Positions 5,443 to 53,487 of a stretch of DNA of 53,487 nucleotides are shown one piece after another. Numbering within the stretch: position 1 is the first letter of the stretch; the number at the start of each line of letters is the position of its first letter. The notes under the pieces are model-generated. The model searched no databases, was not told the origin of the DNA, and worked only from the letters and a program-made list of their open reading frames with translations. Made by a program: the position numbers and the translations under genes. The DNA comes from a virus (taxonomy: Duplodnaviria > Caudoviricetes), in the IMG/VR virus record IMGVR_UViG_3300031028_000001, positions 1-53,487 of that record; one strand, 5' to 3'.

Positions 5443-5447
5443 AGGCT

Positions 5448-6154: not shown

Positions 6155-6167
6155 TTTCATTTCTTGT

Positions 6168-6244: not shown

Positions 6245-6270
6245 TTCAATACTCAAATACTCATTTGTTG

Positions 6271-6350: not shown

Positions 6351-6361
6351 AGTTGGGGCGG

Positions 6362-6565: not shown

Positions 6566-6576
6566 TCGCTCTCCCT

Positions 6577-6659: not shown

Positions 6660-6967
6660 AACATCTCACGCAGTTCTCTGATTATCTGTGCTACCTCCAG
6701 ATGGTACAGCCGTGCAAATCTCACAGGCCCCAACTTGTGCAGTGACAGATTCCCTCTTGAGTGATGCCCCCGGCATAGTGGAATAGCCTGTCTGTCATCC
6801 GCCTTCTGCGATAATCCCCGCGGTCCGGTATGCGCCGATTCTATATACCGCCATGAGCCGCAAACGGCGCAAGGCTGCGCCCGGACCCAGGCGAGATACT
6901 TCCGATCCCGCGTCGGGGGTTCTGAGCGCTTCCAGGGGCGAGGAATGAGCATATACGCCTTCATCAT
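6626..6967 (-). CDS. DUF968/Ref-like HNH-type nuclease domain protein
   Basis: KYLAWVRAQPCAVCG ... AHTG.RG...KADD...IPLCRGHH signature. Confidence 0.75.
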   Translation of the reverse strand: MMKAYMLIPRPWKRSEPPTRDRKYLAWVRAQPCAVCGSWRYIESAHTGPRGLSQKADDRQAIPLCRGHHSRGNLSLHKLGPVRFARLYHLEVAQIIRELREMFLGASRASVAR

Positions 6968-8088: not shown

Positions 8089-8117
8089 ATCATACGTGCT
8101 TCTAGCACGTAGGTCAA
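8089..8117 (-). promoter_or_regulatory. Leftward sigma70-type promoter with palindromic operator in the spacer
   Basis: TTGACC-17 bp-TATGAT; operator TACGTGCT-N3-AGCACGTA at 8093-8111. Confidence 0.85.
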
Positions 8118-8126
8118 GGATTATTC

Positions 8127-8155
8127 TTGCAACTAGCTCGAATAAGTTCTATACT
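8127..8155 (+). promoter_or_regulatory. Rightward promoter for a near-leaderless transcript of the 70-aa gene
   Basis: TTGCAA-17 bp-TATACT; the ATG follows 8 bp later with no SD. Confidence 0.75.
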
Positions 8156-8163
8156 TCTCAGAG

Positions 8164-8376
8164 ATGGGAAGAAAAATTAAGGTGACCGTGGATGTCGATG
8201 AGCTGAGCGCCGCCGGTGGGCGCGCGCGCGCCGCCAAGCTCTCGGGCAAGCAGCTTTCGGACGCCGCCCGCCATGCCGTCAAGGCTCGATGGAAGAAGTA
8301 TTACGAGGAGCACCCGGAGAAGGTGAAGACGCGGAGATCGGGTGCCAGCCGCAAGAAAAAGCTGCAACCGGCTTGA
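8164..8376 (+). CDS. Small basic DNA-binding protein, candidate repressor
   Basis: SAAGGRARAAKLS...AARHAVKARW motif; lies between two operator-containing promoters. Confidence 0.7.
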   Translation: MGRKIKVTVDVDELSAAGGRARAAKLSGKQLSDAARHAVKARWKKYYEEHPEKVKTRRSGASRKKKLQPA

Positions 8377-8401
8377 CATACGTGCTGGCAGCGCGTATAA
8401 T
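8373..8401 (+). promoter_or_regulatory. Perfect-consensus sigma70 promoter with second operator copy
   Basis: TTGACA-17 bp-TATAAT; operator TACGTGCT-GGC-AGCGCGTA at 8379-8397. Confidence 0.9.
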
Positions 8402-8670: not shown

Positions 8671-8757
8671 CCACGCCCGCAAAAACCAGCCTGACACCCC
8701 CGCGTAGCTCAGTCATCCCCCTTGACGAGAGAGAGAAAACGGCGCGAAGCTCACAAA
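8671..8757 (+). repeat. Dispersed five-box repeat, copy R8
   Basis: CCACGCCCGCAAAAACCAGCCTGACACCC...CTCAGTCATC...CGAGAGA...CGAAGCTCACAAA. Confidence 0.9.
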
Positions 8758-8782
8758 TACAGGAGGGCTTTTCGCAAGCGCC

Positions 8783-9343: not shown

Positions 9344-9386
9344 AGCTGATTATCGAAAGCACCACCAAAATCGTGAAGCTGAACGG

Positions 9387-9435
9387 CTCAGTCATGCCGT
9401 GCGACGTGAGCGGCAGAACGCCACGGAGCCACAAA
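9387..9435 (+). repeat. Dispersed repeat, copy R9 (boxes 3-5 only)
   Basis: CTCAGTCATGCCGTGCGACGTGAGC...CGGAGCCACAAA; directly abuts the stop codon of the last late-operon gene. Confidence 0.9.
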
Positions 9436-11031
9436 CTAAAGCGGTCCAATCTGCCATACAGGCGCACTAGGACAGCTCGTATAAAACAACTGATCTACTG
9501 CTGAGTAGCCGCCGCCCATACAGCCATTCGACTGTCCTGCCGGCCGCTGCCCGACATCCCACCCTGACGGATCAGATAGCGAGTGCGAGGCGTGATGCCG
9601 CATGTAGAAGTTCCCATAATCGGCGACGAATCCGACGATGGGATCGCTCGGTGTGTGGACGTTCAGCCAGGTGAGCTGGAAACTGCCGGCCGTGACCTGG
9701 TTGGCGAGCGGGCTCGGCGGATGAAACAGGGGAGGATAGGCGAAGCCGGCGGCGGTCCAGGCTGAATTGGTGGTCAGGTTCGTCACGTCGAACATTTCCC
9801 AGGTGGAAGTCGAGGCCGTGATATCGAGCGAAGTGAATCCGGAGGGGCACGCTTGGGTCCCGGCTGCCGGCGAGCTGCAGGTGGCCACCGGGACTCGCAG
9901 CACGGTAGAAAGCAGCACCGTGGTAGCGTGCGACGTCGTGGTGGTGTTCGATCCAAATGGCGTGAAATACAGATACTCGATGGTCCCGGCCGGGTTCCAG
10001 ACAGGCTGTCCGCCGATGTAATCGTTCTGCGTCTGGACCGCGTGCAGGTTGCCTGAGCCAGTGACGGCCGGGTAACCGACGGTGCCCAGATTCGACAGAT
10101 TCAGGACTTTGTAGGGCGTGCCAGAAGCGTTGGTGAAACTCTGCGTGGTGTCATAGACCACCAAATTGCGGCTATCTGCTGGAAGCAGATAGACCTTCTG
10201 GCCATCGAAGGCGCTCGACTCGAAGCCTCCATTCAGCGCGCCTCCAGGAAGTGTGGAGAGATTGAAGTGCGAGAAATTGGCGATCGCGAACGGCTGTGTG
10301 GTGTCGTACCGGATCAGATTCGTATTCGCGTAGCCGCCGGCATCGGTGGGCGTGTAATAGATGTACCTGCCATCGAACACGCCAGTGCACCAGCCATAGG
10401 TAGCGCCCAGGGGCGAGGTCCCCGCGGTTGGAGCCGAAAACGAAGTATAGTTTGCCGCATTCGAAACCGATGTGCCGCCCGATCCGGCGGAACCGAAAGG
10501 ATTGAAGCGGACGAAAACAGGATTCTGATTGGCCGCATCCGGAGTGTAGTAGACGAAGTTGAGATCCGTCGCGACTCCGACGAAGGCTGTAGCGGCATCC
10601 GCGCCAGGGCACGTATAGGTCGCCGGACAATTCAGCGGCAGCGTGGTCATGTCGAACCAGTCCCAGTTGGCCGCGGCGCACGTTGATGTGGTGCAGCCAA
10701 ACGTTCCCGAGGGGCCTCCGGCATAGGCGATCACCGTTCCGTGGCGATAGATGGTCTGGTATTGCCAGGGATCGAAGCCGGCCAGGCCGTTCAGATACCA
10801 GCCGCCCTGATAGCCCACCGCGAGATGCGCGCCGCTGTCCACTGTGGGGAAGCCGGGGAAGATCGTGGTGCTTGGGGAGAACCCGTGCGAGGTGAGCGTT
10901 AGCACGTTGAACGGCGCCGGCGCCTGGGCACCCATCTGCGTGGGGCCTTGGACCGAGACTTTCCCAGCCGTGCTGACTTGCGCGATCGCCGGAAAAAGAA
11001 TAGCAAAACAAAGGAATAAGAATTTCAGCAT
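9436..11031 (-). CDS. Signal-peptide protein, beta-propeller-like (adhesin/tail-appendage-like)
   Basis: MLKFLFLCFAILFPAIAQ; repeated FDGRYIYYTP / FDGQKVYLLP blade-like motifs. Confidence 0.75.
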   Translation of the reverse strand: MLKFLFLCFAILFPAIAQVSTAGKVSVQGPTQMGAQAPAPFNVLTLTSHGFSPSTTIFPGFPTVDSGAHLAVGYQGGWYLNGLAGFDPWQYQTIYRHGTVIAYAGGPSGTFGCTTSTCAAANWDWFDMTTLPLNCPATYTCPGADAATAFVGVATDLNFVYYTPDAANQNPVFVRFNPFGSAGSGGTSVSNAANYTSFSAPTAGTSPLGATYGWCTGVFDGRYIYYTPTDAGGYANTNLIRYDTTQPFAIANFSHFNLSTLPGGALNGGFESSAFDGQKVYLLPADSRNLVVYDTTQSFTNASGTPYKVLNLSNLGTVGYPAVTGSGNLHAVQTQNDYIGGQPVWNPAGTIEYLYFTPFGSNTTTTSHATTVLLSTVLRVPVATCSSPAAGTQACPSGFTSLDITASTSTWEMFDVTNLTTNSAWTAAGFAYPPLFHPPSPLANQVTAGSFQLTWLNVHTPSDPIVGFVADYGNFYMRHHASHSLSDPSGWDVGQRPAGQSNGCMGGGYSAVDQLFYTSCPSAPVWQIGPL

Positions 11032-11036: not shown

Positions 11037-14000
11037 TTACTCCAGGATTACTGTGAAAAGCTGCATGGCAGTCGCATTGCCCTGCGCGCCGCCGAGCACT
11101 GTAACGATCACCGCCGAGCCAGCCGTACAGGTTGCCGTGCCGCTGCCCTGCGTGGCAGAAGTGGAGACGCCGGTGTAGCCCTGTCCGGTGTTGGTAACGT
11201 AGATCGGTGTGCCGCTGGCGATGGTATTCGTGCCAGTCAGATAGACTGTGGCTGTTGCTCCAGTCCCCACCGTGCCGTTAAACGCCGTCAACAGGCAAGT
11301 CGTGCCGGCCGCTCCGGTGACTGCCGGACCGCTGGTGTATGTGCCCGATACCACGCCGTGCGTGTTGTAATACATCGGCATGTTCAGCGTTTGCGTCGCG
11401 GTCGTGGATACCGGCCGCGACGCGAGGCTGTTGTAAATCGCGGTAGTCCAGCCAGGCATCCCGACAAAGGCGATGTTGCCTCGGGCTTGGCCGCTCGCGC
11501 CTACGACCGGAAAAGTCACATTGAAATTCATCTCGAAGTTAGCCGGATTCAGGCTGGCGGGCACGGTCGGGTTGCCGGCATAACCGATGAGCTGCGTAGA
11601 GCCGTAGAGCAGGTAGGGCGCCGCATGAAAAGTCTCCGCAGTCGAAGAGCTGTACATCGCCATTTCGGCCGCGACCAGGTAGCGGCTGCCAGCGCTGAGC
11701 GTTCCGCCGGTGATGGAGTAAGTCGAATTGAACGCCATGGCACTCGTATCGTCAGCCAGATTGTCGCAACTGGAAAACAGCACCAGAGCGCCGGAGCCTC
11801 CATCCACTGTGCTAATGCCCGTGGGTAGAGGGTTACACGCGCCTTGCGTGACCATGGACAGGGCAGTGATAGCGCCGCCCACCACGGTGATTAAGCCGGA
11901 TGGCTCCGTGGAGCAAGTACCGCCCGTGCCCGTCCAGGTGTCGCCATTGGTATAGCCCGATCCGCCGGGCGCGCCGGCGGGGACGTAGGCGAGCTGCACG
12001 ACGCTGCCGACGATGATAGTGGTATCACCGCCATGGGCGCAAAGACAGTCTCCAGTCGGAATGGTTTCTTTCACCAGACTGAAAGGGCTCGCCGCGACCT
12101 GCGAAATCGCAGTGATGGCTCCCTGCGCATTTACGGTGAGAGAAACGGCTTCCGCAGTGCCACCATACGTACCAGCCGACGCGCCGCTGGCCGGAATAAT
12201 GTTCTCCAGGGTCGCGCCCGGATTGCAGCAGATCTGCGTGCCGGGATTCGTGGTCGCGCTATAAACGATGGGCGTAGTGTATCCGGAGATCGTGTTCCCG
12301 GTGACGACATGGCCGCCCGTGTCTACCCCCGATCCGACGATGTCAATACCAATCGAAGACGCCGTGCCCGCGCCGAGACAGGAGTTGCCGGTAACCGAAG
12401 CGCCATCGGCTGGCGGCGAGTTCAAGGTGATGCAGTAGGCCGCTTCTGTGTTGAAGGGCGTCCAGCTCGTATCGATCTGGTTGCCTGTCACTGTCGAGTG
12501 CTGGATCAGGCTGTTGCCGGGCGTCGAAACGTAGATATTTCCTCGCACGGTGTTGGCTTGCACTTTACTGTCCGGACCGTCAATCTTAAGACAGTTGCCG
12601 ACAAATCCGGTGCAGTCGATGGTGTTATCGACGATGCGCGTCTCGCCGGTCAACGTGGGGAAGTCTCCGGTCGTTATCAGCGGGTAATCCACCATGCCAA
12701 CTGACGGCGTCCCTGTGGGAATCCGAATCGTGTTATGTCTCCACTCCAGGTCGAGACCGCCGCCACCGACGAAGTATCCAGCGGAGTTCGCCGTGGATTT
12801 CAGGTAAATCGAATTGTCGTGGATTCTTGCTCCGATATTGTACTCGCCATAAGCGAACCCGGCCGCTTGCAGGAACGTGCTACTCCGGATCTCGATGTTG
12901 TTCGAGGCGCGCTGCGGAAGCTCCACAAACGTGCCGTTGGCTTGGATGTTGAGATTATCGAACAGCGCGGCCTGCACGTAATTCGCGCTAAAGACGCCGG
13001 AGCTGTTGGAGCCGACCAGAGTAACCGTCCCGCTGAGGTTGCCCAGGGTCAGGTTTTTCACTTGCAGCATCCCAAACAGATAAGTTGCGGTCAGGCTGCC
13101 GCCCTGTATCGACACGCCAGTGACTTGGTAGGCCGACACATCAGCCGCCACCGGAGATGTTCCATAGGACTGCAACAGAGGCCGGTCCAGCGTCACTACG
13201 CCCGTGGTGGCATTACTCGAAACGATCTTGGCCATTTCCGCAGCGCAGGGATAGGTGCCGTTGGCGATCCAAATCATAATATCGTCGCCCGCGACGAAGT
13301 TGGCAGCCTGTGAGGCGGTCGTCGTGGTGATTGTGCTCTGGTTCGCCGTGGTCGGATTTATGGCGTAGTGAGTGGCATTTTCTGCCGATTCCGTCGTCAG
13401 GTCATAGCCAATAGCAATCAGAAACGTGCCGCCGTTGCCACTCGCCAAGGGACCGAGACCGCCCGTCGCCGATTGCACGATGGAAGCGTGCGCGTTCAGT
13501 TGCAACGCGATGTTATTGCAGGTGATCCGCAGATTCGCCCAAGTCCCGAGAACCACGCTGGCGGCTCCGGCCGACTGATAGGAATTCATCAGATACGTGC
13601 CGTCGGGAAAGTACACAGTGCCGCCGCCGTTGGCGCACGCGGCGGTGATGGCAGCCTGGACCGCCGGGCGATCATCCGATGTTCCGTTGCCGGTTGCGCC
13701 GAAGTCCATCACCGAAAGAGTGTCGCCGAGCTTGGAGGGGATCGTGCGCGTTACCGCGCCTGTGCCGGGCGCCGTATACTGCGTCAGATCGGCGGCGGGC
13801 AGCAGCGCGTTGACATCCAGAGGCGCAACGCCATTAGCCGCGCCCACGGTAGCGACGCTCACCCTGCTCGTGTCGGTAGGATGCACATGATCCGCGCGCG
13901 CGTATGCGCTGGATGTCCCAACCGCGGCCGTGCCATCAACCAAAGGCGTGACACTCGAAGCAACTGGAATGGTCGGGAGATTCAAAAGATCGGTATAGCT

Positions 14001-15551
14001 CCCTGACGAATCCACCGCTGGCATGGATGGATCTAAGTCCGAGGTCACGATTAGCGATGGGCTCAGAATGCACGGTGTCGTAGCCGTTGCATGAACAGGT
14101 CCCGCTACCGGGATACCCCACCAGGTGCAATTGAACGAAGTGGGCACCGACGGCGGCGCCTGCAATCCCACGGAATTCGCCGGCGGGGTTTGGGCGGAAC
14201 CAGCCGTCATCTCGAATGCGCCTGCGCCCGTGCCTGAACCGATAAATCCGTTGCCTAATACGTTCGAGCTTCCATCCAGAGCTGCGTAGCCGCTGGGCTG
14301 CCCTTTATTGGCCACGTTCTCAGGGGTGTACGAATACGAGCCGGCCGGTCCGGTCGCTCCTGTCGCGCCGGTGGCTCCCGTTGGGCCGGTGCTTCCTGTC
14401 GCGCCAGTCGGCCCTGTGCTGCCAGTAGGTCCGGCAGGCCCGGTGAGGCCCTGAATCCCTTGCGAGCCGGTAGGTCCTGTCGTTCCCGTGAGCCCTTGAA
14501 TACCTTGAATCCCCTGCGCGCCTGTTGCGCCAGTCGGTCCCGTTAAACCGGTATCTCCCTGCGGCCCCGAGAGCTGCGTCCATTGATCCGAGGCATAGGG
14601 CTCGACGGAGCACGCATCCACGCCGGCGCCCACCCAGATCCAAAGCACCGTACTCGAGTGGGCGCTCGAGAGCCAATCCGATACATACTGCCCCACGGCG
14701 TAGGGGCAATTCCCGGCGGACCAGGATCCTTCATCCGTCAACCCCAGGCCGCTGGCCCCCGGTATGCCTTGCGGGCCTTGCGGGCCGACCGGACCTGTAA
14801 GGCCGACAGAGCCGTTGGTTCCAGCCGTTCCTTGCGGACCCGTGGCGCCCGTGACGCTCGCGCCGGCCGGACCTGTTGGACCCGCAACGCCTTGCGGACC
14901 TGTGACGCTCGCGCCGGCGGGACCCGTGGCACCTGCTGGCCCCGTGGGCCCCGCCGGACCGGTCACGCTCGCGCCGGTTGGACCGGCAGGGCCTTGCGGC
15001 CCGAGTCCGCCCGTCAGTCCGATAATGCCTTGGATACCCTGCGGGCCGGCGGGTCCGGCTGGTCCAGTGGCCCCGAATACGGTCCCAGGAAGCCAGGAGG
15101 ATCCATTCCATATAGCCGATTGCCCCGCCGTCGCGCCGTTCTGGCCCATCTGCGACCAAGGAATGACGAACGACGACGCCGGCGGCGCATTCACGATGAC
15201 CGATCCAACTGTCACGGGAGTCGCGCTGGTTGGAACCACCCAGGTCTCTGTATACTGGCTCGAGTTTCCAGGCGTCTGGCTGGACATCTGCCAGGTGACC
15301 GCATAGCTGGTGCCGAGGGGAATGCAGGTGTCATTCGGGACCAGGTTGACGCTGAAGACTCCTCCTGTGACTGTCACTGGGATGGGCGCCATCGAGACAT
15401 AGTTCGAGCCCGAGATGCAGGGCTGCGAGATCTGGATGGAGCCCCGGCCGTTCGCTCCGCCGAGGTCCGCGCCCATGACGGGCTGGGTCACTGTGGTGGT
15501 TTGCGCCAGCAGGGGTACTATACAAAAGAGCAGTATGAATAGTCGTTTCAT
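11037..15551 (-). CDS. Large tail-fibre-like protein: signal peptide, collagen repeats, pectate-lyase-like beta-helix
   Basis: [17 protein letters not shown]; long G-X-Y runs; [23 protein letters not shown]...[12 protein letters not shown] motif. Confidence 0.85.
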
Positions 15552-15560
15552 GAAGGGCCT

Positions 15561-15643
15561 TTTGGGTGCTTCGTGCGCTTCAATCGCGCGTCAATCTCAA
15601 GGCTGTGTTGCGATTCGATGCCGGGTCACTTCCGCTGGTAGAC
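15561..15643 (-). repeat. Dispersed five-box repeat, copy R10 (inverted)
   Basis: Reverse complement: GTCTACCAGCGGAAGTGACCCGGCA...CACAGCCTTG AGATTGA CGCGCGA TTGAAGCGCA CGAAGCACCCAAA. Confidence 0.85.
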
Positions 15644-15648
15644 TTGCG

Positions 15649-17673
15649 CTACTGCACTCCAGCCACGTTTGCCAGCACTGCCGCCACGTTCGCGCCAAGG
15701 TCCGCGCCGTCCGCGCCGGCCAAGTGATATTTGCTCGTTGACGCGAGAGCGCATCCCGGAAGATCGGAGCCAGCCAAGCACCCTGGAGAGTCAACCATGC
15801 CGACCATCGCCCAGTTGAGCGGCTGACAAGCGGTCTGCAACGGCTGCACGTTACAGGCGTGCGTGCCGCCCGCCGGGTTAGCCGTCGATATCGGCTGGAA
15901 AACATGATCGGCCAGCGGATAAATCGGCGTGCTCGCCCAGGTGTCTCCCACCTGCATGTTATTCAGATAGGTCCCGGTCGCCGGAAGCAGCGCGAGCGAT
16001 GCGCCCTGAGCGTTGCCGTCCACCGCTACACCGCCGTACCCGATATTGTTCGTCACGGTGAGCCCCTGAATCAGCGCGATATTGGCCTCGCCGTTCCAGT
16101 ACGATTCGTTGATGTTCGCCGCGATGGTTCCGTTTAAATTAACGCAGGTATTGTGGTCGAAGGTGATATTTTGCATCCCACCGTTCGACGGCGTGCCACC
16201 AGAAAGGACAAAGCAGTCCGGCGCGCTCGGCAGACTACCTCCCCAGTTGGTGTTCACGTCCAGAAACAGATTGTTGCGAAAGAGAATGCGCGCCGTGTTG
16301 GCAGTGACCGTCTGATTATTCGAGGCGACGTAAGGGCCGCCGGCCGCGTGCTGAAACAGGTTGTTCGAGTAGGTGATGTCGGTATCGTGCCAGCAGGTGG
16401 AAGTCGGACACCCGCTGTTATTGGAGATGAAGTTTCCCTGCCCCTGTGCAACCGAATAATCTGCGATGTTGGAGTCCCATAGCGCGCGGATACAGTCCTT
16501 GCATTCCATGTTGTCTTTGATGTCGAGCGTGAGGCCGGCAAAGAGCTGGCCGTACCAGCTCGGCTGCTTGTGCAGATAGTTCCGGCTGACGATGATATCC
16601 GAAGGAGGCAGCAGGCCCGTGCCGCAGCCGCCAAACATGATGTTTTCCCCGCTCGCTTCCAGGTGATTGTTGTAAATCAGAAACGGCCCGGTCGAGTCAC
16701 ACGCGATTAGCGCCTGCGCATCCTGGGAGGTGTCGATCATCCCGACTACTTGCGAATTGATCAGCGCGAAGTACGCCGAGTCCGCGTAAAAACCGCGCAC
16801 CGTCATCCCGTTGCCCGAAGCAATCACGCGGTCGAACGTGATGTTAGATGGCTCCTGGTTCATGGCCGTAGCGCTCACGGCAAGCATCACGATGCCCCAA
16901 TTCGGCTGGCTGGGAGTGCCGACGTTGCTTGTGGTGAACGAGAGGCCGGCGAAGTACCAGTTACTCGGAACAGATGTACAGGTGCCACCCGGAGGCAGTT
17001 GGCAAAAGCCGAGCGCCTGGTTCTGATTCGGAGATGAGAGCGTCGCTGTGAGTCCGGCTTGTGATAACTGGATCTCCTGCGTAGTGGCCGCGTTGCCGCC
17101 GGGCAATTGAGCCATCGCAGAAGTGTTGACCAGGATCGGGCTACTGGTCGGACACGCCGTGCCTGGCGTGTTGAAGTTCCCGCTCCAGGTGACTCCGGCA
17201 TCGAGCACCAGGTTCTGACCGCATTGCGCCGCATTCAGCGCCGTTTGCAGATTCGCGCCGGCATGTACTGGGACGACCGTCAGGCCGGTCGGATAGTTGA
17301 CGGTGACGAAATTCTTGGGCAACGCGGGCTGCACTACGCTGGCAGGCAACGCGGGTAACCCGGTGGGCGCGGGCGCGGTGGGAATGACTATCGGGGGAGT
17401 GACCGCCGGAGATGTGCCAGCGGGTCCAGCGGGTCCGATAGGTCCGACTGGTCCGACGGGCCCTTGTGGCCCAATTGTGCCAGCGGGTCCAATGGGTCCC
17501 GTGAGTCCAGTCGGTCCAGGAACAGGGGCAGCGGGAGGCTGGCATGTGATCGTGATGGATTGAGGCGTGGTCACAACAGTCACAACCGTGCCCGCCGCGC
17601 ACGTGGTGGTTTGGGCGCTTACGGCAACAACCGCAAGCGCTCCGATGATTACAGAAAGCAAAATGTTTTTCAT
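15649..17673 (-). CDS. Signal-peptide protein with short collagen repeat and right-handed beta-helix
   Basis: MKNILLSVIIGALAVVAVSAQ; GPTGLTGPIGPAG; NLQTALNAAQCGQNLVLDAG; Asn ladders. Confidence 0.8.
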   Translation of the reverse strand: MKNILLSVIIGALAVVAVSAQTTTCAAGTVVTVVTTPQSITITCQPPAAPVPGPTGLTGPIGPAGTIGPQGPVGPVGPIGPAGPAGTSPAVTPPIVIPTAPAPTGLPALPASVVQPALPKNFVTVNYPTGLTVVPVHAGANLQTALNAAQCGQNLVLDAGVTWSGNFNTPGTACPTSSPILVNTSAMAQLPGGNAATTQEIQLSQAGLTATLSSPNQNQALGFCQLPPGGTCTSVPSNWYFAGLSFTTSNVGTPSQPNWGIVMLAVSATAMNQEPSNITFDRVIASGNGMTVRGFYADSAYFALINSQVVGMIDTSQDAQALIACDSTGPFLIYNNHLEASGENIMFGGCGTGLLPPSDIIVSRNYLHKQPSWYGQLFAGLTLDIKDNMECKDCIRALWDSNIADYSVAQGQGNFISNNSGCPTSTCWHDTDITYSNNLFQHAAGGPYVASNNQTVTANTARILFRNNLFLDVNTNWGGSLPSAPDCFVLSGGTPSNGGMQNITFDHNTCVNLNGTIAANINESYWNGEANIALIQGLTVTNNIGYGGVAVDGNAQGASLALLPATGTYLNNMQVGDTWASTPIYPLADHVFQPISTANPAGGTHACNVQPLQTACQPLNWAMVGMVDSPGCLAGSDLPGCALASTSKYHLAGADGADLGANVAAVLANVAGVQ

Positions 17674-17684
17674 AAGCAACCCAT

Positions 17685-17768
17685 CTCTACGAAAAAAGCT
17701 GAATGACCGGACGCTCTGGCTCAGTCATGCCGTGCCCGCGAGAGGCACACAGCCACGAAGCTCAGAAA
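17685..17768 (+). repeat. Dispersed five-box repeat, copy R11
   Basis: CTCTACGAAA...GACCGGACG...CTCAGTCATGCCGTGCCCGCGAGA...CGAAGCTCAGAAA. Confidence 0.9.
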
Positions 17769-17779
17769 CCAAAATCCCT

Positions 17780-38394: not shown

Positions 38395-40314
38395 TTACCT
38401 TAGCCTGATCTGCATACGCTGCTGCGGTCTCTGCACAGGTTGAACTGACTCACCAGGAGTCACTGGCTTGCTGGCTGCGATTCTGCTTTCGAGTGCCGCC
38501 CAGTGTTTTTCCTGAAAGCGGTGCGATCCGAAATCCCACGCCGCCGCCTGCGCGTAGATCCTGCAATCCAGCGCCTCATTCCGAGGCCGGGTCTGCTGAT
38601 ACTCCTGCTGCGCGCGCCCCTTCTTATCTCTGCGAGTGACTAAGTGCTCCGAGCAGATCTGTTTGAAGTGCTCGTCCCCATAGGTCGGATCTTCCGGCAG
38701 GTGACAGAAGCCCGCGGGATATCCGTAGCCCAAGCCCAGCTCGTCGGCGGTCGGCGGCCGCTTGCGGAGATCGGCGAAGAGCTGCCCCTTGAAGAAATCC
38801 GGGTTCAGCGTCTTGAACAGCACGCCGAATTTGAGCTTGCGTCCGCCTACCGTGGCTTCGACAGCGTGCGGAGATCCAACCGGATCGCCCTTCGAATAGC
38901 CCTTGATCGCCCAAGTCTGAGGACGGGGCTGCAAGCGTACCCACTCGTAAACTGCTGGCGTGATCGTTCCATCGCCGGAGTCTACAAACATCCGCTCGAT
39001 CGAGAGTACTCCGCCGCCTTCACGTTCAAACGTCTGGGCCCGGAACGCTTCCAGGTGCCGCCATACATCCGGCTGAGTCGGATCGCCATAGAAGATTCGA
39101 TAATCGACGCTCCAAGATTCGCGATTGCGTCCCCAGGCGACAAGCTCGACTTCGATGCGGCCGCCGTTCTCGCGCTGCACATCCGCGCCGGCCGTCAGGA
39201 ACAATCCGCCCACCGGAACCTGTCCAACCGGGTACGATTCACGCTGCTGGAGGAGGCGTTCCCATTCGAGCGCTTCACCCGGCTCGGCCCAATTCTCGGC
39301 AAGCGACGTGTTGATGAACGTCTTCAGGTCCTCGGTGTTGTCTTTCTTGGTCAGGTAGTCGAGGACGATATCCCAGAGCTGCTTCCACGGGCTGTATAGC
39401 TCGCTGATCCAGAACCCGGCGATCCCGGTGAAGGGCTTCGCCGCGCGCCACTCGCCGCGCTCGACCGCGTTCCATCTCTCGGCATCGTTCCAGGCCGCGT
39501 CGCAATGCTCGCAGTGATAATGCGCCGAGACCGCCTGCTCTTCGCGGGTCGGAAGCGTCGAATCCCAGCGCACTTGCGTGCGAAACTTCAGCATCATCGA
39601 CTGATGCTGGCCGCACTGGGGACACGGAACCCAGAACTGGCGCTGGTCCGAGACTTCGTAGCCGCGATCGATCTCGCTGCCCTCGGAAGTGGGCGAGCAG
39701 GTATCGATTTCCTTGGCGCGGTGCCGGAAGGTGGCCATGCGCTTGCGCGCGAGCGAGACCGGGTTGCCTTCGGCGCCGGCGGAGAGCGCGTATTTGTCCA
39801 CTTCGTCGCAAAACAGGAAGCGGATGGCGCGCCGGGCCAGGTTGCCCGGGGATCCGGCCGAAGTGACCGCCAGAATGCCGCCCGGGAAGCGCTTTTCCTC
39901 GATGGTGTTGCCGGAATCTCGAGATTTCGAGTCGGCCACCTTCAATTTCAGACGCGGCGTGTCCCGAATCATCGGCGCCAGGCGTTCCTTGCTGAAATCT
40001 TTGGCGTCTTTGTCCCGTGGCTGAATGATCAGCATCGGGCCTGGGTCCTGGTCGATGAAATATCCGACCGCGTTTTCGATCGTGACCGTCTTCAGGAGCT
40101 GCGTACAGCTCTTGATCACCACACGGCGCACGCGCGGGTCCGAAACTGCGTCCATGGGCTCGCGCTGGAACGATAGCGTGGTCCATTTGCCGTGCTCGGC
40201 CGCGCTTTCGGGCGACAAACGCCGGTGCTCGTCCGCCCACTGGGAGACGGTAACCTCCGGCGGCGGGGCGAACAGCCGGTAGGCGGCGCGCGATACCTCG
40301 GCAATGACGCTCAC
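38395..40314 (-). CDS. terL: Terminase large subunit, lambda gpA family
   Basis: VSQWAD, IRFLFCDEVDKY, SDQRQFWVPCPQCG, GADVQ, RNEALDCRIYA. Confidence 0.95.
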   Translation of the reverse strand: MSVIAEVSRAAYRLFAPPPEVTVSQWADEHRRLSPESAAEHGKWTTLSFQREPMDAVSDPRVRRVVIKSCTQLLKTVTIENAVGYFIDQDPGPMLIIQPRDKDAKDFSKERLAPMIRDTPRLKLKVADSKSRDSGNTIEEKRFPGGILAVTSAGSPGNLARRAIRFLFCDEVDKYALSAGAEGNPVSLARKRMATFRHRAKEIDTCSPTSEGSEIDRGYEVSDQRQFWVPCPQCGQHQSMMLKFRTQVRWDSTLPTREEQAVSAHYHCEHCDAAWNDAERWNAVERGEWRAAKPFTGIAGFWISELYSPWKQLWDIVLDYLTKKDNTEDLKTFINTSLAENWAEPGEALEWERLLQQRESYPVGQVPVGGLFLTAGADVQRENGGRIEVELVAWGRNRESWSVDYRIFYGDPTQPDVWRHLEAFRAQTFEREGGGVLSIERMFVDSGDGTITPAVYEWVRLQPRPQTWAIKGYSKGDPVGSPHAVEATVGGRKLKFGVLFKTLNPDFFKGQLFADLRKRPPTADELGLGYGYPAGFCHLPEDPTYGDEHFKQICSEHLVTRRDKKGRAQQEYQQTRPRNEALDCRIYAQAAAWDFGSHRFQEKHWAALESRIAASKPVTPGESVQPVQRPQQRMQIRLR

Positions 40315-40868
40315 GCGATGTCAGGCGAATGCTCTGACAGGTCGGTGAGGGCTTCGCGGACCGCGCGGTCGATCAAGGCGCGGCATTCGAGCACGTCGGT
40401 GAGCACGGCCGCCTTCGGCGCCACTTTATCCGGGATGAGCAGCATCTGGTTGCGCACGGTGGAGACGAGTTCGCCCCAGGCGGCCTCGACTTTGATGCGG
40501 TCGACCACGTCGCCCTGCTTGCGCTCGAAATTCAAGCGCGCCATTTCGGCCTCCCAGTATTCCCTCGAGGCCCGCGACTTCTGGAAGTCGTTGATGTTGG
40601 CGACGGGCGGGCCATCGTCGGCTTCGGCGGCCGGAGCTTCAACAGTCGGCGCCGGTTTGCTGTCCGGCTGGCTGCCACTTCTGCGGCTCGGATCGGTGCG
40701 GCGCTCCCAGTCTTTGTCGGCTTTGGCGAAATCGATCACGCCGGCGGCGGCGCGGATGCGGCCCGATTGCACCGCCTTGGCCACGGCCTGCTTCGTCGTC
40801 GGCTTGCCGTTTGTCGTCCGGTACTTAGCGTAAGCGGTGAGCCCGCCCGTCAACCTGCCTGGTGTCAC
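40311..40868 (-). CDS. terS: Terminase small subunit (Nu1-like)
   Basis: N-terminal HTH-like AYAK...QAVAKAVQSGRI; coupled to terL. Confidence 0.85.
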   Translation of the reverse strand: MTPGRLTGGLTAYAKYRTTNGKPTTKQAVAKAVQSGRIRAAAGVIDFAKADKDWERRTDPSRRSGSQPDSKPAPTVEAPAAEADDGPPVANINDFQKSRASREYWEAEMARLNFERKQGDVVDRIKVEAAWGELVSTVRNQMLLIPDKVAPKAAVLTDVLECRALIDRAVREALTDLSEHSPDIA

Positions 40869-40992: not shown

Positions 40993-41979
40993 TTAGAGGC
41001 CGAGGCGCGTGGCCGCATTATCCCGCCAGAGGTCCAGATCCCTCGTGTACCGGCGAACCATGGCCGCGCTCTTGTGGCCGGTCTGGTTCATGATCGAGCG
41101 TTCCGAGGCTCCGCCTATAGTCGCCTGGGTGACGAACCCGCTGCGCAGCGAATGCGCTGAGAATTGCGTGACATCCAAGGCCGCCGTCTTGCAGTATTGC
41201 TGCACAATCCTGCGCACCACCTGGTCTGTAAGGCCATGCTCGGCCACGTGGCCGTGTCGGTTCACACCGCGGAATAGCGGCCCTTCGACGATGCCTGCCG
41301 CCTCCAGCCACCGACGCAGCGAGCGCACCGGGCACAGTTGCGGGCTGCTGCCATACGGAATGCCCACGGCTCGGCCGTGTCCTTCTTGGTCTGTCTTGCT
41401 GCGGCGTAGCGTGACCTTCAGCCCATCGTCCTTAAAGACGATATCGTTAATGGTCAATGCGACCAGTTCCGAGCGACGGAACGCGCCCGCGAACCCGAGC
41501 AGCAGCATGGCTGTATCTCGTTTACCGATAAGCCTGTTAGGCCGGATGACGTCGAGCATCTGGCGCAGATGATCGGTCAATAGCGCTGCTTTGCCCGCCT
41601 GGGCTGTGCCGTGTGTGCGCTTGATGCCGGCCAGCACTTCCCGCACCTCGGCGTGGCGCATGGCACAGGGCGATTCGTGCCCGGCCGCCTGGTGCACCTT
41701 GGAAATGGCCGCGAGTCGCCGGATGATGGTGGCCGGCTTGTTGACGCCACCCAGATCGGCGATAAACAGGGCGATCGTATGCGGCGCCGCCGGCATGGTT
41801 TCGAGTCCCCGCAGGAGGCACCAGGTGTTGAAGTGCTGCCAGTCGCTGCGATACGCGAGCACGGTGTTCGGCGCTTTCGAAGCCGCTGCGTATTCGCGGG
41901 CTTTGTCGAAAACCGGAGCCAGTTCGCCCAGGCTGGCGACGGTGACGGCCGTTGCGTCAACCATCAAGCGTTCCAGCAA
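40993..41979 (-). CDS. Tyrosine recombinase (Cre-like), copy 1
   Basis: RDTAMLLLGFAGAFRRSEL, RSKTDQ, HSLRSG, QTGH, RRY catalytic motifs. Confidence 0.93.
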   Translation of the reverse strand: MLERLMVDATAVTVASLGELAPVFDKAREYAAASKAPNTVLAYRSDWQHFNTWCLLRGLETMPAAPHTIALFIADLGGVNKPATIIRRLAAISKVHQAAGHESPCAMRHAEVREVLAGIKRTHGTAQAGKAALLTDHLRQMLDVIRPNRLIGKRDTAMLLLGFAGAFRRSELVALTINDIVFKDDGLKVTLRRSKTDQEGHGRAVGIPYGSSPQLCPVRSLRRWLEAAGIVEGPLFRGVNRHGHVAEHGLTDQVVRRIVQQYCKTAALDVTQFSAHSLRSGFVTQATIGGASERSIMNQTGHKSAAMVRRYTRDLDLWRDNAATRLGL

Positions 41980-42004
41980 ACAATAATCATAGGTTATGGG
42001 TACG
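41976..42004. promoter_or_regulatory. dif/loxP-like core upstream of recombinase 1
   Basis: Minus strand: CGTACCCATAA-CCTATGA-TTATTGTTTGC (ATAA-N7-TTAT). Confidence 0.5.
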
Positions 42005-42623
42005 CAGGAAAACCGGCTCTGGCTGGATCATGCCGTGCGGCTTCCGCTGGTAGAGAATCCGTGGGATTGCCAATAAATTCGCCCTTGGCGAGTGACCCCA
42101 AGCGCACCGTTCCGCCGAAATACTCATCGAGCGGAAACAGGCCGTACGGCCGCATCTCGCGAAAGGTCCGGCCAAGCTTCTGCTCAATCTGATAGACCGC
42201 ATGAAAGAACGCATAGCGGTCGATCTTCATCCGGCTGCAGCAAGCGTGGTAGTCAGCGCCTTCGAGGAAGTGGCGCCGGAAAATCTCATACTCGAACTCG
42301 TCCAGTATGCGCCGGCTCACCAGGCAGAAATCCGCGATATACTCCTCGGTCTTGCGGCCGTACATCACACGATTGTCCTTGGTATGGCCGAATTCGAGAG
42401 ACACACTGCTCATGTGTTTTTCCTGTTTCATTAGGTCTCGAAAGCGTCCATAACAGGCTCGGAAGATGGCCCGGAAAACGCATTCACAGGGGCGCTGCCG
42501 ATCGCAACCGCGGGTAGTGCGCATGCCGAAGCCATGGCAGTTTGCGCAGTGCGGTTTGGCCATCGCAATGGTCTGGGATCGATCCCAATTAAACGCGATC
42601 GCAGGTTTCAGTCGAGAATCCAT
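41994..42623 (-). CDS. Cys-rich protein with C-terminal sigma-region-4-like helices; possible late transcription regulator
   Basis: CANCHG...CECVFRAIFRACY; LDEFEYEIFRRHFLEG; position upstream of the packaging genes. Confidence 0.55.
   Translation of the reverse strand: MDSRLKPAIAFNWDRSQTIAMAKPHCANCHGFGMRTTRGCDRQRPCECVFRAIFRACYGRFRDLMKQEKHMSSVSLEFGHTKDNRVMYGRKTEEYIADFCLVSRRILDEFEYEIFRRHFLEGADYHACCSRMKIDRYAFFHAVYQIEQKLGRTFREMRPYGLFPLDEYFGGTVRLGSLAKGEFIGNPTDSLPAEAARHDPARAGFPAYP
42011..42055 (-). repeat. Partial copy of the dispersed repeat (boxes 1-3) next to the recombinase-1 core site
   Basis: Reverse complement CTCTACCAGCGGAAGCCGCACGGCA matches R12 CTCTGCCAGCGGAAGCCGCGCGGCA at 23 of 25 positions. 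Confidence 0.8.
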
Positions 42624-42761
42624 GGATCCACCGGTTTCGATTGGCATAGAAACGGTTTCAATAACACCAGTTCGAGCGCCAGATACCGCACCTGCTCGGT
42701 GGCCGCGTTGTCCATCAGATAATCGAACTGCTCTTCGAGGACCGCGCGCGCATCGGTCCGT

Positions 42762-43079
42762 TCAGACGTTCGCAGTGGTCGATCGATTGCTGTTGCCGCC
42801 ATGTCGTAGCGCCAATTCGGTTCTGTTCGAGACGTTCAGTTTGCGGAAGATGCGGTACAGATATTCCTTGACCGTGCCTTCCGCCAGGTGCAGATCCCAG
42901 GCGATTTGCTTGTTGGATTTCGCCTGCGCTATGTGACTGACGATCTGCTGCTCACGGAATGACAGAGGACCGGTCCATGGCTTGCGGATACCAGCGGGCT
43001 TGCGGCATGCAGGGCAGGTATACTCTTTGGCTTCTGCTTGAAATGAGTTGCCGCAACGGGCACAGGTTCTATCCAACAT
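42762..43079 (-). CDS. LuxR-type HTH regulator with N-terminal Zn ribbon
   Basis: CARCG..CPAC; LSFREQQIV...SNKQIAWDLHLAEGTVKEYL..IFRKLNVSNRTEL. Confidence 0.88.
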   Translation of the reverse strand: MLDRTCARCGNSFQAEAKEYTCPACRKPAGIRKPWTGPLSFREQQIVSHIAQAKSNKQIAWDLHLAEGTVKEYLYRIFRKLNVSNRTELALRHGGNSNRSTTANV

Positions 43080-43087
43080 CTTTTTGG

Positions 43088-43170
43088 CTTGTGGCTTCGC
43101 GGCTCCGCAATCGCGCGAAAAGTGAGTGACTGTGTTGTGACTCAGTGCCGCGCGGCTTCCGCTGGCAGAG
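43088..43170 (-). repeat. Dispersed five-box repeat, copy R12 (inverted)
   Basis: Reverse complement: CTCTGCCAGCGGAAGCCGCGCGGCA...CACAGTCACT CACTTTT CGCGCGA TTGCGGAGCCG CGAAGCCACAAG. Confidence 0.85.
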
Positions 43171-43172
43171 AT

Positions 43173-43352
43173 TCAATAACCGAGACGCAATGTGTGCTGC
43201 GCACCGAACGCGCCAAACAGCCAGAGGAACAGCAAGACCACAAGCAGCAAGCCAACGATGCCGAGGCCTCCGCCATAGCCGTAGGTTCGGTATCCCCACG
43301 CCCCGCCGCCAAGTCCGAAAATCAACAGCAACACGATGATGATGAACAGCAT
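43173..43352 (-). CDS. 59-aa two-TM Gly-rich membrane protein (DUF3309-like)
   Basis: Hand-translated: MLFIIIVLLLIFGLGGGAWGYRTYGYGGGLGIVGLLLVVLLFLWLFG... Confidence 0.75.
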   Translation of the reverse strand: MLFIIIVLLLIFGLGGGAWGYRTYGYGGGLGIVGLLLVVLLFLWLFGAFGAQHTLRLGY

Positions 43353-43355
43353 TTT

Positions 43356-43718
43356 TCACCTTCCCTTGTAAGGATCGTCACGCGGCTGCGGACCCACGCC
43401 GCCGATCGCCACATGATTGGTTCGCGAGAAATAAAAACCGACTACCGTGCCAAACGCGACGCTGATGATGGTAGGAATATCTCCCCCCTTCGAGCGAAAC
43501 GCCGCCAAGATCCCTACGAACATGGCCGCGATCACCACCACCAGCGCAATGATCGCCTGGGTGTGCTCCCAGATCAGATTGACTCGGCGCTGGCCCGCGA
43601 AAGTCAAATCCTGCTGCGCCGTCGTCGCCGCCGGGAGAGGTATGGCCGCCTTGTCTCGGTAGAATTCAATATCGCCCGGCAGGTTTATCGGTTCGGGGGA
43701 GGGTGTTTCTTCGGGCAT
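43356..43718 (-). CDS. Two-TM membrane protein, holin-like
   Basis: Two hydrophobic segments ending VVGFYFSRT. Confidence 0.55.
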   Translation of the reverse strand: MPEETPSPEPINLPGDIEFYRDKAAIPLPAATTAQQDLTFAGQRRVNLIWEHTQAIIALVVVIAAMFVGILAAFRSKGGDIPTIISVAFGTVVGFYFSRTNHVAIGGVGPQPRDDPYKGR

Positions 43719-45049: not shown

Positions 45050-45365
45050 GGGATTTCTCCAGCAGTTTGCAGAGCGCGATCTGGATACGCTTTGGAAATT
45101 TTACGGTTTTCGTGTCGAAAGCCCTGGTTGCCATTCCACCCATGGAATTCAGCGGAATCCATAGGCCGCGCTCCCCGTAGCCGTAGTATGGTCCGTAGTG
45201 CCAACGCGCCAGTTGGCGGCGATCCACGTTCGGCGGAATCTTCCAGCCGGATCGCTTCAGAATGGGATTCACCAGCTTGGCGTCTAGTTGCCAAGTATGC
45301 AGGCGCTTCAGGTGCTTTAGTATTGCCGCGTGGTGCGGGTCACGTGGGTCCAGTGGTACGCTCAT
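45039..45365 (-). CDS. Hypothetical protein (IS passenger)
   Basis: ATGA-coupled to the transposase stop. Confidence 0.6.
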   Translation of the reverse strand: MSVPLDPRDPHHAAILKHLKRLHTWQLDAKLVNPILKRSGWKIPPNVDRRQLARWHYGPYYGYGERGLWIPLNSMGGMATRAFDTKTVKFPKRIQIALCKLLEKSHAV

Positions 45366-46294
45366 GCGATCAACCTCGCGTAGGTCAGCCGCTTGCCGGA
45401 AACTCCGTCCACGAAGGAATCCAGACGCTCAAGCGTGTGGCGTTCTACGTTCCCTTCGTTCAGCCGGAAAGTGAACTCGTCAACGTACCGGAACAGATGC
45501 TTCTTGCTGGCGTGGTGGTAAACCCCATGCAGCCCGCGCTTGAGCACAGCCCAGACGCTCTCTATGGAGTTGGTGGACGCCGCGCCCCTGGCATACTCAC
45601 CGGCGCTGTGGTTGACCGTCTCGTGGCGGTAGAACAGCCCATCCAGGTCGCTGAATACCATGTGATCGTCGGTGTAGAGTTGCGATCCGGCTTCGACGTT
45701 GGCGTGGATCTGACCGTGGATGCCGTCCAGCGTGCGAATCTCAACTACCTTGGCGAACGTCCGGCCACCCTTGCCGCGCTCCCGCATCCCAAGGACGGCG
45801 GTTTTCCCGACAGGGCCGCGCCCCATGTTCAGCTTCTTGCCCTTGTGCTTGTTCCCTTCCAGGCCGCCGACGAAGCACTCGTCGATCTCCACCACGCCCT
45901 TGAGTTTCTCCGGGTCGGTCGAACCGCCGCACGCTTCCCTGAGGCGTCCCAGGATGAACCACGCGGTTTTCTGCGTAACGCCTATCTCTTTGGCAAGCTG
46001 CATGGAGGAAATCCCTTTGCGGGCCGTGACCAGCAAGTACATGGCGTAAACCCACTTGTTCAATGGCACCTTGGAGCGCTCGAAAATGGTTCCCGTCCTG
46101 ACCGTGAAATCGAAGTCTCCGCAGGCGTTGCACCGATAGAAACCGTCCTTCCGGGTCGTGAGCCGATCCGACGTTTTACACTCCGGGCAAACCGGGCCAT
46201 TGGGCCACAATCGCCCTTCCAGGTAGGTCCGCGCCGTCTCCACGTCCGGGAACATCTCGAAGAGCTTGAATGTGCTGATAGTGGAGCGGGACAT
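45362..46294 (-). CDS. IS1595-family DDE transposase
   Basis: N-terminal Zn ribbon CPEC..CNAC; VEIDECFVGG, YTDD, TNSIESVWAVLKR, YVDEFTFR. Confidence 0.93.
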   Translation of the reverse strand: MSRSTISTFKLFEMFPDVETARTYLEGRLWPNGPVCPECKTSDRLTTRKDGFYRCNACGDFDFTVRTGTIFERSKVPLNKWVYAMYLLVTARKGISSMQLAKEIGVTQKTAWFILGRLREACGGSTDPEKLKGVVEIDECFVGGLEGNKHKGKKLNMGRGPVGKTAVLGMRERGKGGRTFAKVVEIRTLDGIHGQIHANVEAGSQLYTDDHMVFSDLDGLFYRHETVNHSAGEYARGAASTNSIESVWAVLKRGLHGVYHHASKKHLFRYVDEFTFRLNEGNVERHTLERLDSFVDGVSGKRLTYARLIA

Positions 46295-46295
46295 T

Positions 46296-46529
46296 TCAGC
46301 AGCCCTCCACTTTGCGGTTCCAGGACCACTGCTCCACCGATCCCAACTGCTCCCAGGTCTTTCGGGCTCCGCCGTCGTGGTAGGTTGGCCGTTTGCGGAC
46401 ATCGGCCTCATAATCGGCCTTGCCACGTGCGGGGAGAGCCGAATTGTAGCGGTCAATCTGCTCCTGAACGGAACCGAGTCCCTTTACTTTCGCTTCCGCC
46501 GTGGTCAGGTACATTTTGTTGTTTTCCAT
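46296..46529 (-). CDS. Small hypothetical protein upstream of the transposase (IS passenger)
   Basis: AGGA RBS; lies inside the IS ends. Confidence 0.6.
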   Translation of the reverse strand: MENNKMYLTTAEAKVKGLGSVQEQIDRYNSALPARGKADYEADVRKRPTYHDGGARKTWEQLGSVEQWSWNRKVEGC

Positions 46530-51125: not shown

Positions 51126-51211
51126 TTTGTGGGCCTCGATGCGTTCAGGCGCTCGCGTTCACCGCATGACTGAGCAATGTCACCCAGTCGTGCGAGTTCT
51201 TGCTGGCGTGG
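51126..51211 (-). repeat. Dispersed five-box repeat, copy R15 (inverted)
   Basis: Reverse complement: CCACGCCAGCAAGAAC...GTGACATTG CTCAGTCATG CGGTGAA CGCGAGC GCCTGAACGCAT CGAGGCCCACAAA. Confidence 0.9.
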
Positions 51212-52174: not shown

Positions 52175-53110
52175 TCAGAGACCACGCATCGACGACGCGT
52201 TAGCCCGAAAGGGATCCCCCTCACGAAAGTATCTTCGCAGCGTGACCAGCGATCGATGGCCCGTCTGGCGCGCAATCGTAAATTCATTGACGCCGGCCGC
52301 GACGGCCGTTGTGACAAAACCGGAACGCAGCGAGTGCGCCGCATAGTCCCTGGGATTCAGATCGATACTGCGGATGGCGGCTTTCAGGATGTTCGCCACT
52401 GCGACAGGCTGCAATCGCTGGAAGGGCCACCGCAGACGGCGGAACAGCGGTCCACTGTCAGAGCCTCGGATCTCGAGATACGCGCGGAGGGCGCCTACGG
52501 CATCCGTTTCCGGTTGCTGCCCGGGTTCCACGCCGATCAATCGCCCTACGCCAGCCTGATCCTGTTTCTCGCGGTCCAGGACGACGACTATGCCCTTTGG
52601 GACCCATCGGATGTCATCCAGGTCCAGCGCCACGATATCCGATCTCCTCAGAGCCGTGGCGAAGGTCAGAGTGAGCACCGCCCGATTTCGGATGTCGCCT
52701 GGTCGTGTGCTTCCCAGCATTGCAGCGCAGATCCGGCGGAGGTCCTCGATCCGCAGCGGCGTCTTCTGGTCGGGCTTCTCGCAACGAAGTCTTTGCGCGG
52801 ATATCAGAAACTGCCGGATGGCGAGAGGTTCCGGAATTGGAATCCTAGCAGACCGATGCGCATCGTTCACGGCGTTCATGTAAACCCGCGCGCTTTCGAT
52901 CTTGCCTCCGGAAAGAAGCGAATCGGTGAGATACAGAATCACTGTTTCGGCCGACGCTGGAAATGGGCAGCGATTGGCGCGACCGCACCAAAGAGTGAAT
53001 CGCCTCCAGCTCTCTCGGTAGCAATCGCGAGTGCGCGGGGCCTGCACCGATTCGTCGATGCGCGCGCGGTAGTCGAACAGTTTTTTGAAGTCGGGGGAGC
53101 CTTCAAGCAT
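52175..53110 (-). CDS. Tyrosine recombinase (Cre-like), copy 2
   Basis: RNRAVLTLTFATALRRSDI, REKQDQ, HSLRSG, QTGH, RRY. Confidence 0.92.
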   Translation of the reverse strand: MLEGSPDFKKLFDYRARIDESVQAPRTRDCYRESWRRFTLWCGRANRCPFPASAETVILYLTDSLLSGGKIESARVYMNAVNDAHRSARIPIPEPLAIRQFLISAQRLRCEKPDQKTPLRIEDLRRICAAMLGSTRPGDIRNRAVLTLTFATALRRSDIVALDLDDIRWVPKGIVVVLDREKQDQAGVGRLIGVEPGQQPETDAVGALRAYLEIRGSDSGPLFRRLRWPFQRLQPVAVANILKAAIRSIDLNPRDYAAHSLRSGFVTTAVAAGVNEFTIARQTGHRSLVTLRRYFREGDPFRANASSMRGL

Positions 53111-53200: not shown

Positions 53201-53487
53201 CAGTCATCGGGCAGTATTCAAAACAAAGAAGTTCTGAGGCTGGGGGGCCTATGGATATAGTATCCGAAGTGCCCGGGGTCCTCGCAGCACGCGCCGCGCG
53301 TAGTCCACCTTCCGTAACACTTTGACGCTCTGAACTGCACCCAGTCACTGCCAAGAAACGAAGTGCTGTTCCGAGCTGAACGCGTCCCGGAAGGCTATTC
53401 ATATTTCTACCACGGTTCTGTGGTCGATTGAAACCCTCTCTGGGCGCATTTCCTTGCGGCCCACCGGCGCGCCTCACCGCCGGCAAC

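Follow-up and report, generated by a model that had tools for sequence, protein, structure and literature searches.

Does the fragment of a dispersed repeat that adjoins a loxP/dif-like palindrome in front of a phage recombinase gene form one recombination site with it, or are the two unrelated? This question is raised by an 80-bp stretch (positions 41976 to 42055) directly upstream of the gene for recombinase 1, a Cre/XerD-like tyrosine recombinase encoded by the 53,487-bp stretch of DNA analyzed here (hereafter, the window). The window is the complete assembly of its record, has a G+C content of 60% and no terminal repeat, and comes from a tailed phage or prophage. The original prediction took the 80 bp for half of a repeat copy fused to a recombination core, and thus for a possible attI-like primary site of the enzyme or a core with accessory boxes. 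We confirmed that the sequence concerned is present on the minus strand, read from 42055 to 41976. With moderate confidence, and judging from sequence comparisons, we interpret it as the control region between orf217 and the recombinase 1 gene, composed of two unrelated parts: a putative dif/lox-like site of the enzyme and a dispensable, lineage-specific repeat fragment. The features concerned are as follows.

40993 to 41979, minus strand: recombinase 1, a Cre/XerD-like tyrosine recombinase of 328 amino acids with a TTG start
41976 to 42004, minus strand, read from 42004 to 41976: candidate dif/lox-like core of recombinase 1
42004 to 41994, minus strand: left arm of the core, CGTACCCATAA
41993 to 41987, minus strand: 7-bp centre of the core, CCTATGA
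41986 to 41976, minus strand: right arm of the core, TTATTGTTTGC, which includes the TTG start codon (41979 to 41977)
41994 to 42647, minus strand: orf217, an open reading frame (ORF) of 217 amino acids with a positive codon-usage score, encoding a possible sigma-region-4-like regulator
42016 to 42059, plus strand: partial repeat copy (the 3' third; boxes 1 to 3 of the original prediction, on the other strand), antisense to recombinase 1
43083 to 43174, plus strand: repeat copy R12, the comparator for boxes 1 and 2, between a DUF3309 gene and a LuxR-type gene (42762 to 43079)

The core reads CCATAA-CCTATGA-TTATTG, that is, CCATAA-N7-TTATTG, and lies at the recombinase start, as had been predicted, ending on the TTG start codon at 41979. 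The left arm ends in TAA, which is the stop codon of orf217, and the core stretch is formally inside the ORF at 41994 to 42647. Recombinase 1 was taken to start at this TTG and not at the ATG at 41964 because the related locus L022, which encodes a 92%-identical protein, has an ATG there and no counterpart of the inner ATG; the start codon of L128 (66% identity) is in the same register. The gene and its upstream region are shared by four lineages: the window; L022/L126/L127 (92% amino acid identity); L128 to L130 (66%); and L178, which is frameshifted, about 48% identical by tblastn, and has the same order of orf217, recombinase, and small terminase. Each of the other three retains the core, aligned with the start codon as in the window, and in none of the four is the right arm as good as the left. 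Within the window, the inner ATAA-N7-TTAT is exact and occurs only once, with 0.12 occurrences expected. The case for the window core rests on its position, its unique inner palindrome, and its conservation in the three sister lineages, and the core appears to be a degenerate member of a palindrome class associated with the enzyme family.

This class consists of palindromes with arms ending in CGATAA around a 6- to 7-bp centre, located just upstream of members of this Cre/Xer-like family on phages, plasmids, and chromosomes. The motif was first spotted by eye, as ..GATAA-N7-TTATC.., upstream of several relatives on genome contigs. At 89 loci, ATAA-N7-TTAT had 11 matches in 28,312 bp of upstream windows versus 13 in 527,629 bp elsewhere. 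We generalized the motif to CGATA-N8/9-TATCG and reduced 94 loci to 89 with at least 120 nt of upstream sequence, and to 81 after removal of near-identical ones. The exact motif had 14 matches in 25,752 bp upstream versus 5 in 476,744 bp elsewhere; it was present at 14 of the 81 loci (Fisher p = 7.8e-15), with 11 of the 14 exact matches coming from viral loci fetched after the motif had been seen, and at 22 of the 81 when up to one mismatch was allowed. A later, independent set of metagenome contigs, in which 40 of 80 loci were usable, contained the exact motif at six loci (p = 8.5e-4) and the motif with no more than one mismatch at ten. Finally, the closest named relatives of recombinase 1 are plasmid genes annotated as "site-specific integrase" (40–50% identity), and four of six plasmids, chosen from the top of the relative list for taxonomic spread, had the palindrome upstream of the recombinase gene, those of Protochlamydia and Hymenobacter with perfect 13-bp arms and a 7-bp centre. 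The strong enrichment thus recurred in the genome, viral, metagenome, and plasmid sets, which were fetched separately, supporting the loxP/dif-like part of the original description at the level of the family.

The relatives' sites have up to 13 of 13 arm positions paired and centres of 6–7 bp. Their outer arm letters vary by lineage yet stay palindromic (GTCCGATAA, TAGCGATAA, TAACGATAA, and GGTTCGATAA), and the centres are unrelated between lineages. A generic best-palindrome statistic was not significant upstream of most of the relatives; only the specific motif was enriched. In the main texts that a literature search covered, neither this palindrome class nor the combination of a Xer-like enzyme and a dif-like site on a tailed phage was described.

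The protein itself is consistent with such a site. Recombinase 1 matches the Pfam families Phage_integrase (PF00589; 3e-17) and Phage_int_SAM_1, and its SAM-like N domain and catalytic domain occupy all 328 residues, with no arm-binding N-terminal domain. It aligns over its full length to the XerD (18–279) and Cre (49–330) chains; the Cre alignment spans recombinase 1 residues 47–317 and is a weak similarity (E about 1e-6). Arg-168, Lys-195, His-276, Arg-279, His-302, and Tyr-311, which we assign to the catalytic R..K..HxxR..H/W..Y motif, are invariant across nine aligned relatives. The scores were below the NCBIfam equivalog cut-offs for XerD (62.9 bits versus 329.6), XerC (47.6 versus 335), XerS (43.3 versus 267), and XerA (42.1 versus 220), and below that of the integron-integrase model TIGR02249 (20.4 bits versus 265). 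By these comparisons, recombinase 1 is a simple (Cre/Xer)-type, Cre/XerD-like tyrosine recombinase, and it is neither a bona fide XerC, XerD, XerS, or XerA by curated cut-offs nor an integron integrase. A paralogue, recombinase 2 (52175 to 53110), is encoded at the opposite end of the early region and is about 33% identical to the L022 enzyme and 29–40% to other relatives. Its upstream region, of which 377 nt are available, contains no CGATA-type palindrome; a short GGATA-CTA-TATCC dyad is found at 53253 to 53265, about 145 nt before the recombinase 2 start.

The arrangement resembles several known modules. The gene xerS immediately adjoins difSL as one module, and large plasmids encode a recombinase beside its site (PMC5357621); XerS/difSL, XerH/difH, and XerCD/dif share with the present locus the pairing of a Xer-like recombinase with its own imperfect palindrome in one module (PMC5357621, PMC2731167). 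Since the published dif sites in Table 1 of PMC2731167 read ..[CG]ATAA-N6-TTATG.., matching the inner ..ATAA/TTAT.. dyad, the class resembles dif not only in shape but also in sequence. The differences from Xer/dif are that the module is on a tailed phage (on plasmids in relatives) and not at a chromosome terminus, that the 7-bp centre is longer than that of classical dif (6 bp) and shorter than that of difSL (11 bp), that both arms in this family look like one arm type, and that recombinase 1 scores far below the Xer cut-offs. Unlike Xer/dif, this family has, to our knowledge, no FtsK link. Cre/loxP of phage P1 and Vika/vox are likewise phage- or plasmid-borne two-domain recombinases that act alone on a palindrome near their gene, as recombinase 1 is predicted to do, and vox was itself found as a palindrome near the Vika gene (PMC3553980). 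The perfect 13-bp arms of some relatives and the alignment of recombinase 1 to Cre add to the likeness to Cre/loxP, from which the family differs in its 6- to 7-bp spacer (not 8 bp) and unrelated arm sequence, and the window site differs in being asymmetric and overlapping the start codon. The prevalence of the palindrome upstream of the plasmid relatives also recalls plasmid multimer resolution, a system from which this cos-type phage differs in having no plasmid maintenance genes that we could find.

It is plausible that the core is the enzyme's own site, most likely the one at which recombinase 1 binds and crosses over, and it is probably an autoregulatory operator as well. Two recombinase 1 monomers would bind the two arms, and the 7-bp centre would be where strands are exchanged with another copy of the site, carried by a sister, dimeric, or concatemeric circular genome, so that circular phage DNA would be monomerized; a similar site in the host would be a less likely partner. 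The right arm covers the start codon, and the core centre stands where L022 has its ribosome-binding site (AGAGGA, eight bases before the ATG). Because of this overlap, occupancy of the site should shut off the enzyme's own expression, and the bound enzyme would repress its own gene.

Comparison of close relatives gave a further hint of crossover. For two pairs of close relatives, the left arm marks where homology is lost, the break falling at its outer edge (L091/L095 at −15; L058/L063 at −13/−18), as would be expected if full sites recombine with full sites. The pair L030/L044, both from one Alicyclobacillus strain, shares a 2.27-kb module containing the palindrome, a helix-turn-helix (HTH) protein, and the recombinase, present on the chromosome and on a plasmid with 91% identity (4713 to 6979 in each); no half-site was found at the right boundary of this shared module. 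The chromosomal copy, L030, has a second dif-like site 5 kb downstream (L030:9741–9766) with acetyltransferase genes in between; read on the opposite strand, this site looks like a classical dif of the firmicute kind.

Several observations weigh against a crossover site in the window. Only 6 of the 11 positions in the core arms pair, a chance level that 2,318 of 53,458 window positions (4.3%) equal or exceed, so the window's palindrome taken alone proves nothing. The core has two mismatches to CGATA..TATCG, and 37 window positions match as well. A search of the window for a second site or half-site partner gave none that was convincing. That the window, L022, and L178 agree at the core could instead be due to a translation-start or promoter region. 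Across the family, the motif was defined after part of the data had been viewed, and its exact form is missing within −300 to +20 at 67 of the 81 and 34 of the 40 loci. Between the window and L022, and between L030 and L044, homology extends at least 38 nt beyond the site, with the junctions elsewhere. Finally, genes for partition or replication, which would point to a plasmid prophage, were not found in the phage.

Part of this evidence would fit a palindrome that never undergoes crossover and serves only to control transcription or translation of the gene, with the recombinase or a different repressor as its ligand. The overlap of the core with the start codon and the ribosome-binding position and the lack of a partner site in the window are in line with this, as are two relatives: L042 has a different palindrome after a good TTGACT-17-CATAAT promoter, and the L206 site precedes an AbrB/PIN pair, a kind of operon usually autoregulated through palindromes. 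We nevertheless consider an operator alone unlikely. The recombinase is the sole gene common to the motif-carrying loci, and the neighborhoods of 8 genome and 15 further loci were heterogeneous and contained no second conserved gene; moreover, the arms of 11–13 bp, the free 6- to 7-bp centre, and the likeness to dif fit a crossover site, and the homology breaks at the arm edge in the two close pairs point the same way.

Slightly less probable still is that the window holds no site at all, the core being a chance weak palindrome in an AT-rich translation-initiation region and the family motif being inapplicable to this lineage. The chance-level arm pairing, the two consensus mismatches with their 37 equal matches, and a right arm that is degenerate in all three close lineages would be expected in that case. 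Against it, an exact ATAA-N7-TTAT that is unique in 53 kb falls within ~30 nt before the start, for which the chance is about 1e-4 by our own arithmetic, and at the ATG of L128 the palindrome is better formed, reading TAACGATAA-N7-TTATCAGTA in an unchanged register.

We next consider the other part of the 80 bp. Boxes 1 and 2 (42031 to 42055) match R12 (43146 to 43170) at 23 of 25 positions, exactly as had been reported. The strong-match part of the fragment spans 42031 to 42059, and this 29-mer is identical to 43146 to 43174 at 26 of 29 positions, the best value in 200 shuffled windows being 23. Past box 2 the similarity drops, to 29 of 44 over 42016 to 42059. When 21 full copies and the fragment were aligned, only the 3' ~31–35 nt of the unit aligned, and the family profile matched the fragment only antisense to the recombinase, at model positions 68–98 of 100 with 5 bits. 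What had been called a half copy is therefore a piece of the repeat, though only about the last third of the unit. We also considered whether the whole spacer between orf217 and the recombinase is a decayed sense copy, as GCACGGCATGA and GTTTTCCTGCGTA look like family boxes; this was rejected because the profile reached only 0.5 bits there and gave no match in the spacers of L022, L178, and L128.

The repeat-plus-core arrangement on which the original prediction depended proved not to be conserved: the other three lineages have the core without the repeat half, an outcome that the original prediction had itself given as a refutation. Boxes 1 and 2 occur in the window only (one of four lineages), and the family profile is empty upstream of the recombinase in the other three. 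The DNA homology between the window and L022 runs from window position 42028 to 36994, and the repeat copy closest to the site in the L022 lineage is about 700 nt off. No member of the repeat family was found beside the recombinase gene in relatives of 31–58% identity. As the core is kept without boxes 1 and 2 in L022/L126/L127, L128 to L130, and L178, these results argue against boxes 1 to 3 as accessory sites; the fragment would have been inserted or retained in the window lineage only and would not be needed by the site.

The protein encoded by orf217, which lies upstream of recombinase 1, is Cys-rich and has acidobacterial and viral relatives of ~190 amino acids; these relatives range from 166 to 192 amino acids, and the alignment is confined to residues 19–187. 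The last ~30 codons of orf217 cross the repeat fragment and end within the left arm of the core, and its homologue in L178 terminates ~70 nt short of the core site; the tail over the fragment is an extension found only in the window lineage. The likeness of the protein to sigma-70 region 4 or DUF722-type phage regulators is weak, with leads below 0.9 and under the tool's confidence bars; it may be a late-gene regulator of the kind that usually precedes terminase genes. A weak terminator-like hairpin with a T-rich run (42079 to 42091, minus strand) is located where conservation of orf217 ends, immediately ahead of the repeat fragment.

Apart from this fragment, the repeat forms a family of dispersed DNA elements of ~90–100 nt with six conserved boxes and is not an RNA. 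Its canonical strand reads TTTGTGAGCYTCG .. CTCNCG .. GCACGGCATGACTGAG .. GTCAnGC .. TTCTTGCGG or TTCCGCTGGTAGAGAT, with a central GCATGAC..N16..GTCAnGC dyad. The full copies in the window, R12 included, are the following.

1839 to 1924, 3043 to 3124, 4121 to 4200, 5362 to 5442, 8675 to 8761, 9360 to 9441, and 17689 to 17774, minus strand: full repeat copies
3482 to 3570, 15556 to 15647, 43083 to 43174 (R12), and 51126 to 51207, plus strand: full repeat copies
15556 to 15647, plus strand: the second copy of the R12 sub-type, abutting the start of the tail-fibre gene 11037 to 15551

The copies are intergenic, occur in either orientation, and in many cases directly adjoin a start codon, and the repeat is also present in the related viral contigs L001, L006/7, L013, L015, L017, and L126/L127; at L013:7313–7523, two copies stand head to head with overlapping 3' ends. 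We regard the repeat as a set of DNA boxes because Rfam, searched at gathering thresholds over the entire window, gave no match and no fold is conserved on either strand: the consensus folds of the 21 copies had 4 pairs at −0.86 kcal/mol on one strand and 0 pairs on the other. The structured-RNA or attC reading was rejected on this ground. A role as a standard promoter was also rejected, since a sigma-70 scan found no site within 41800 to 43400 and, within the copies, one weak site only, specific to a single copy. The boxes, the central dyad, the placement at gene boundaries in either orientation, and the several small HTH proteins of the phage (two LuxR-type proteins and the possibly sigma-like orf217 product) suggest that the repeat may be a protein-bound regulatory or exchange element.

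A link between recombinase 1 and this dispersed repeat is tempting but unsupported. It is very improbable that the enzyme uses the repeat copies as secondary sites, the fragment being a scar of such use, and shuffles or spreads repeat-bounded modules in an integron-like manner without attC folds; in a milder variant, the phage may enter the host dif by means of its own Xer-like enzyme and dif-like site. Like the IntI/attI/attC system, the locus combines a tyrosine recombinase gene preceded by a site with a repeat located where genes meet, and like cer and psi it has extra DNA beside a Xer core; it differs from the former in the integron-integrase score, the lack of an attC-like fold or a shared core in the repeats, and the unconserved junction, and from the latter in that the accessory regions of cer and psi are conserved with the site, whereas the adjoining repeat here is absent in relatives. 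Least probable of all is the original reading, an attI-like primary site or cer/psi-like accessory boxes through which recombinase 1 acts on the dispersed repeats: the fragment directly adjoins the core and the repeats are cassette-like in 1–9.5 kb, at gene boundaries in both orientations, but three lineages have the core without the fragment, relatives lack nearby repeats, the repeats contain no ATAA-N7-TTAT and no conserved hairpin, and the enzyme scores 20 bits against 265 with the integron-integrase model.

The supposed connection between the recombinase and the dispersed repeat is thereby removed, leaving the enzyme with a candidate site of its own. Should the site prove real, the phages of this group have a self-contained Xer/Cre-like module anchored between a late regulator and the terminase, which would provide a handle on how circular phage DNA is kept monomeric or an integration site is chosen. 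The palindrome class also predicts target sites for dozens of uncharacterized phage and plasmid recombinases, which would be easy to test and could serve as orthogonal lox-like tools.

The genes next to the module are consistent with a tailed phage, and the small terminase subunit follows recombinase 1 directly.

40311 to 40868, minus strand: small terminase subunit (TerS), directly downstream of recombinase 1

L178 has these genes in the same order, orf217–recombinase–TerS. A lambda-type large terminase (38395 to 40314) is encoded on the minus strand together with TerS, and the same strand also encodes a portal, an S49 protease, a major head protein, and long collagen-like fibres. A DNA search against cultured phages gave no matches, and a protein search gave only relatives of 23–34% identity, including Streptomyces phage ZL12 and Bacillus phage vB_BtS_B83. 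Because Bryobacterales/Solibacter assemblies contain relatives of recombinase 1, an acidobacterium is the probable host.

Several further features were noted elsewhere in the window. The genes at 11037 to 15551 and 15649 to 17679 encode very long proteins resembling tail fibres, which contain collagen triple-helix repeats and a pectate-lyase-like domain; F5/8 type C (discoidin) domains occur in the neighboring proteins. An IS1595-family transposase gene (DDE_Tnp_IS1595 and a zinc ribbon) is present at 45362 to 46456, within the phage regulatory region. ARAGORN reported a tRNA-like gene at 6168 to 6244 with an undetermined two-base anticodon. Lastly, a perfect TTGACA-17-TATAAT promoter on the plus strand (8373 to 8401) faces a TTGACC-17-TATGAT promoter on the opposite strand (8117 to 8089), and this arrangement (8089 to 8401) looks like a divergent early or lysogeny switch.

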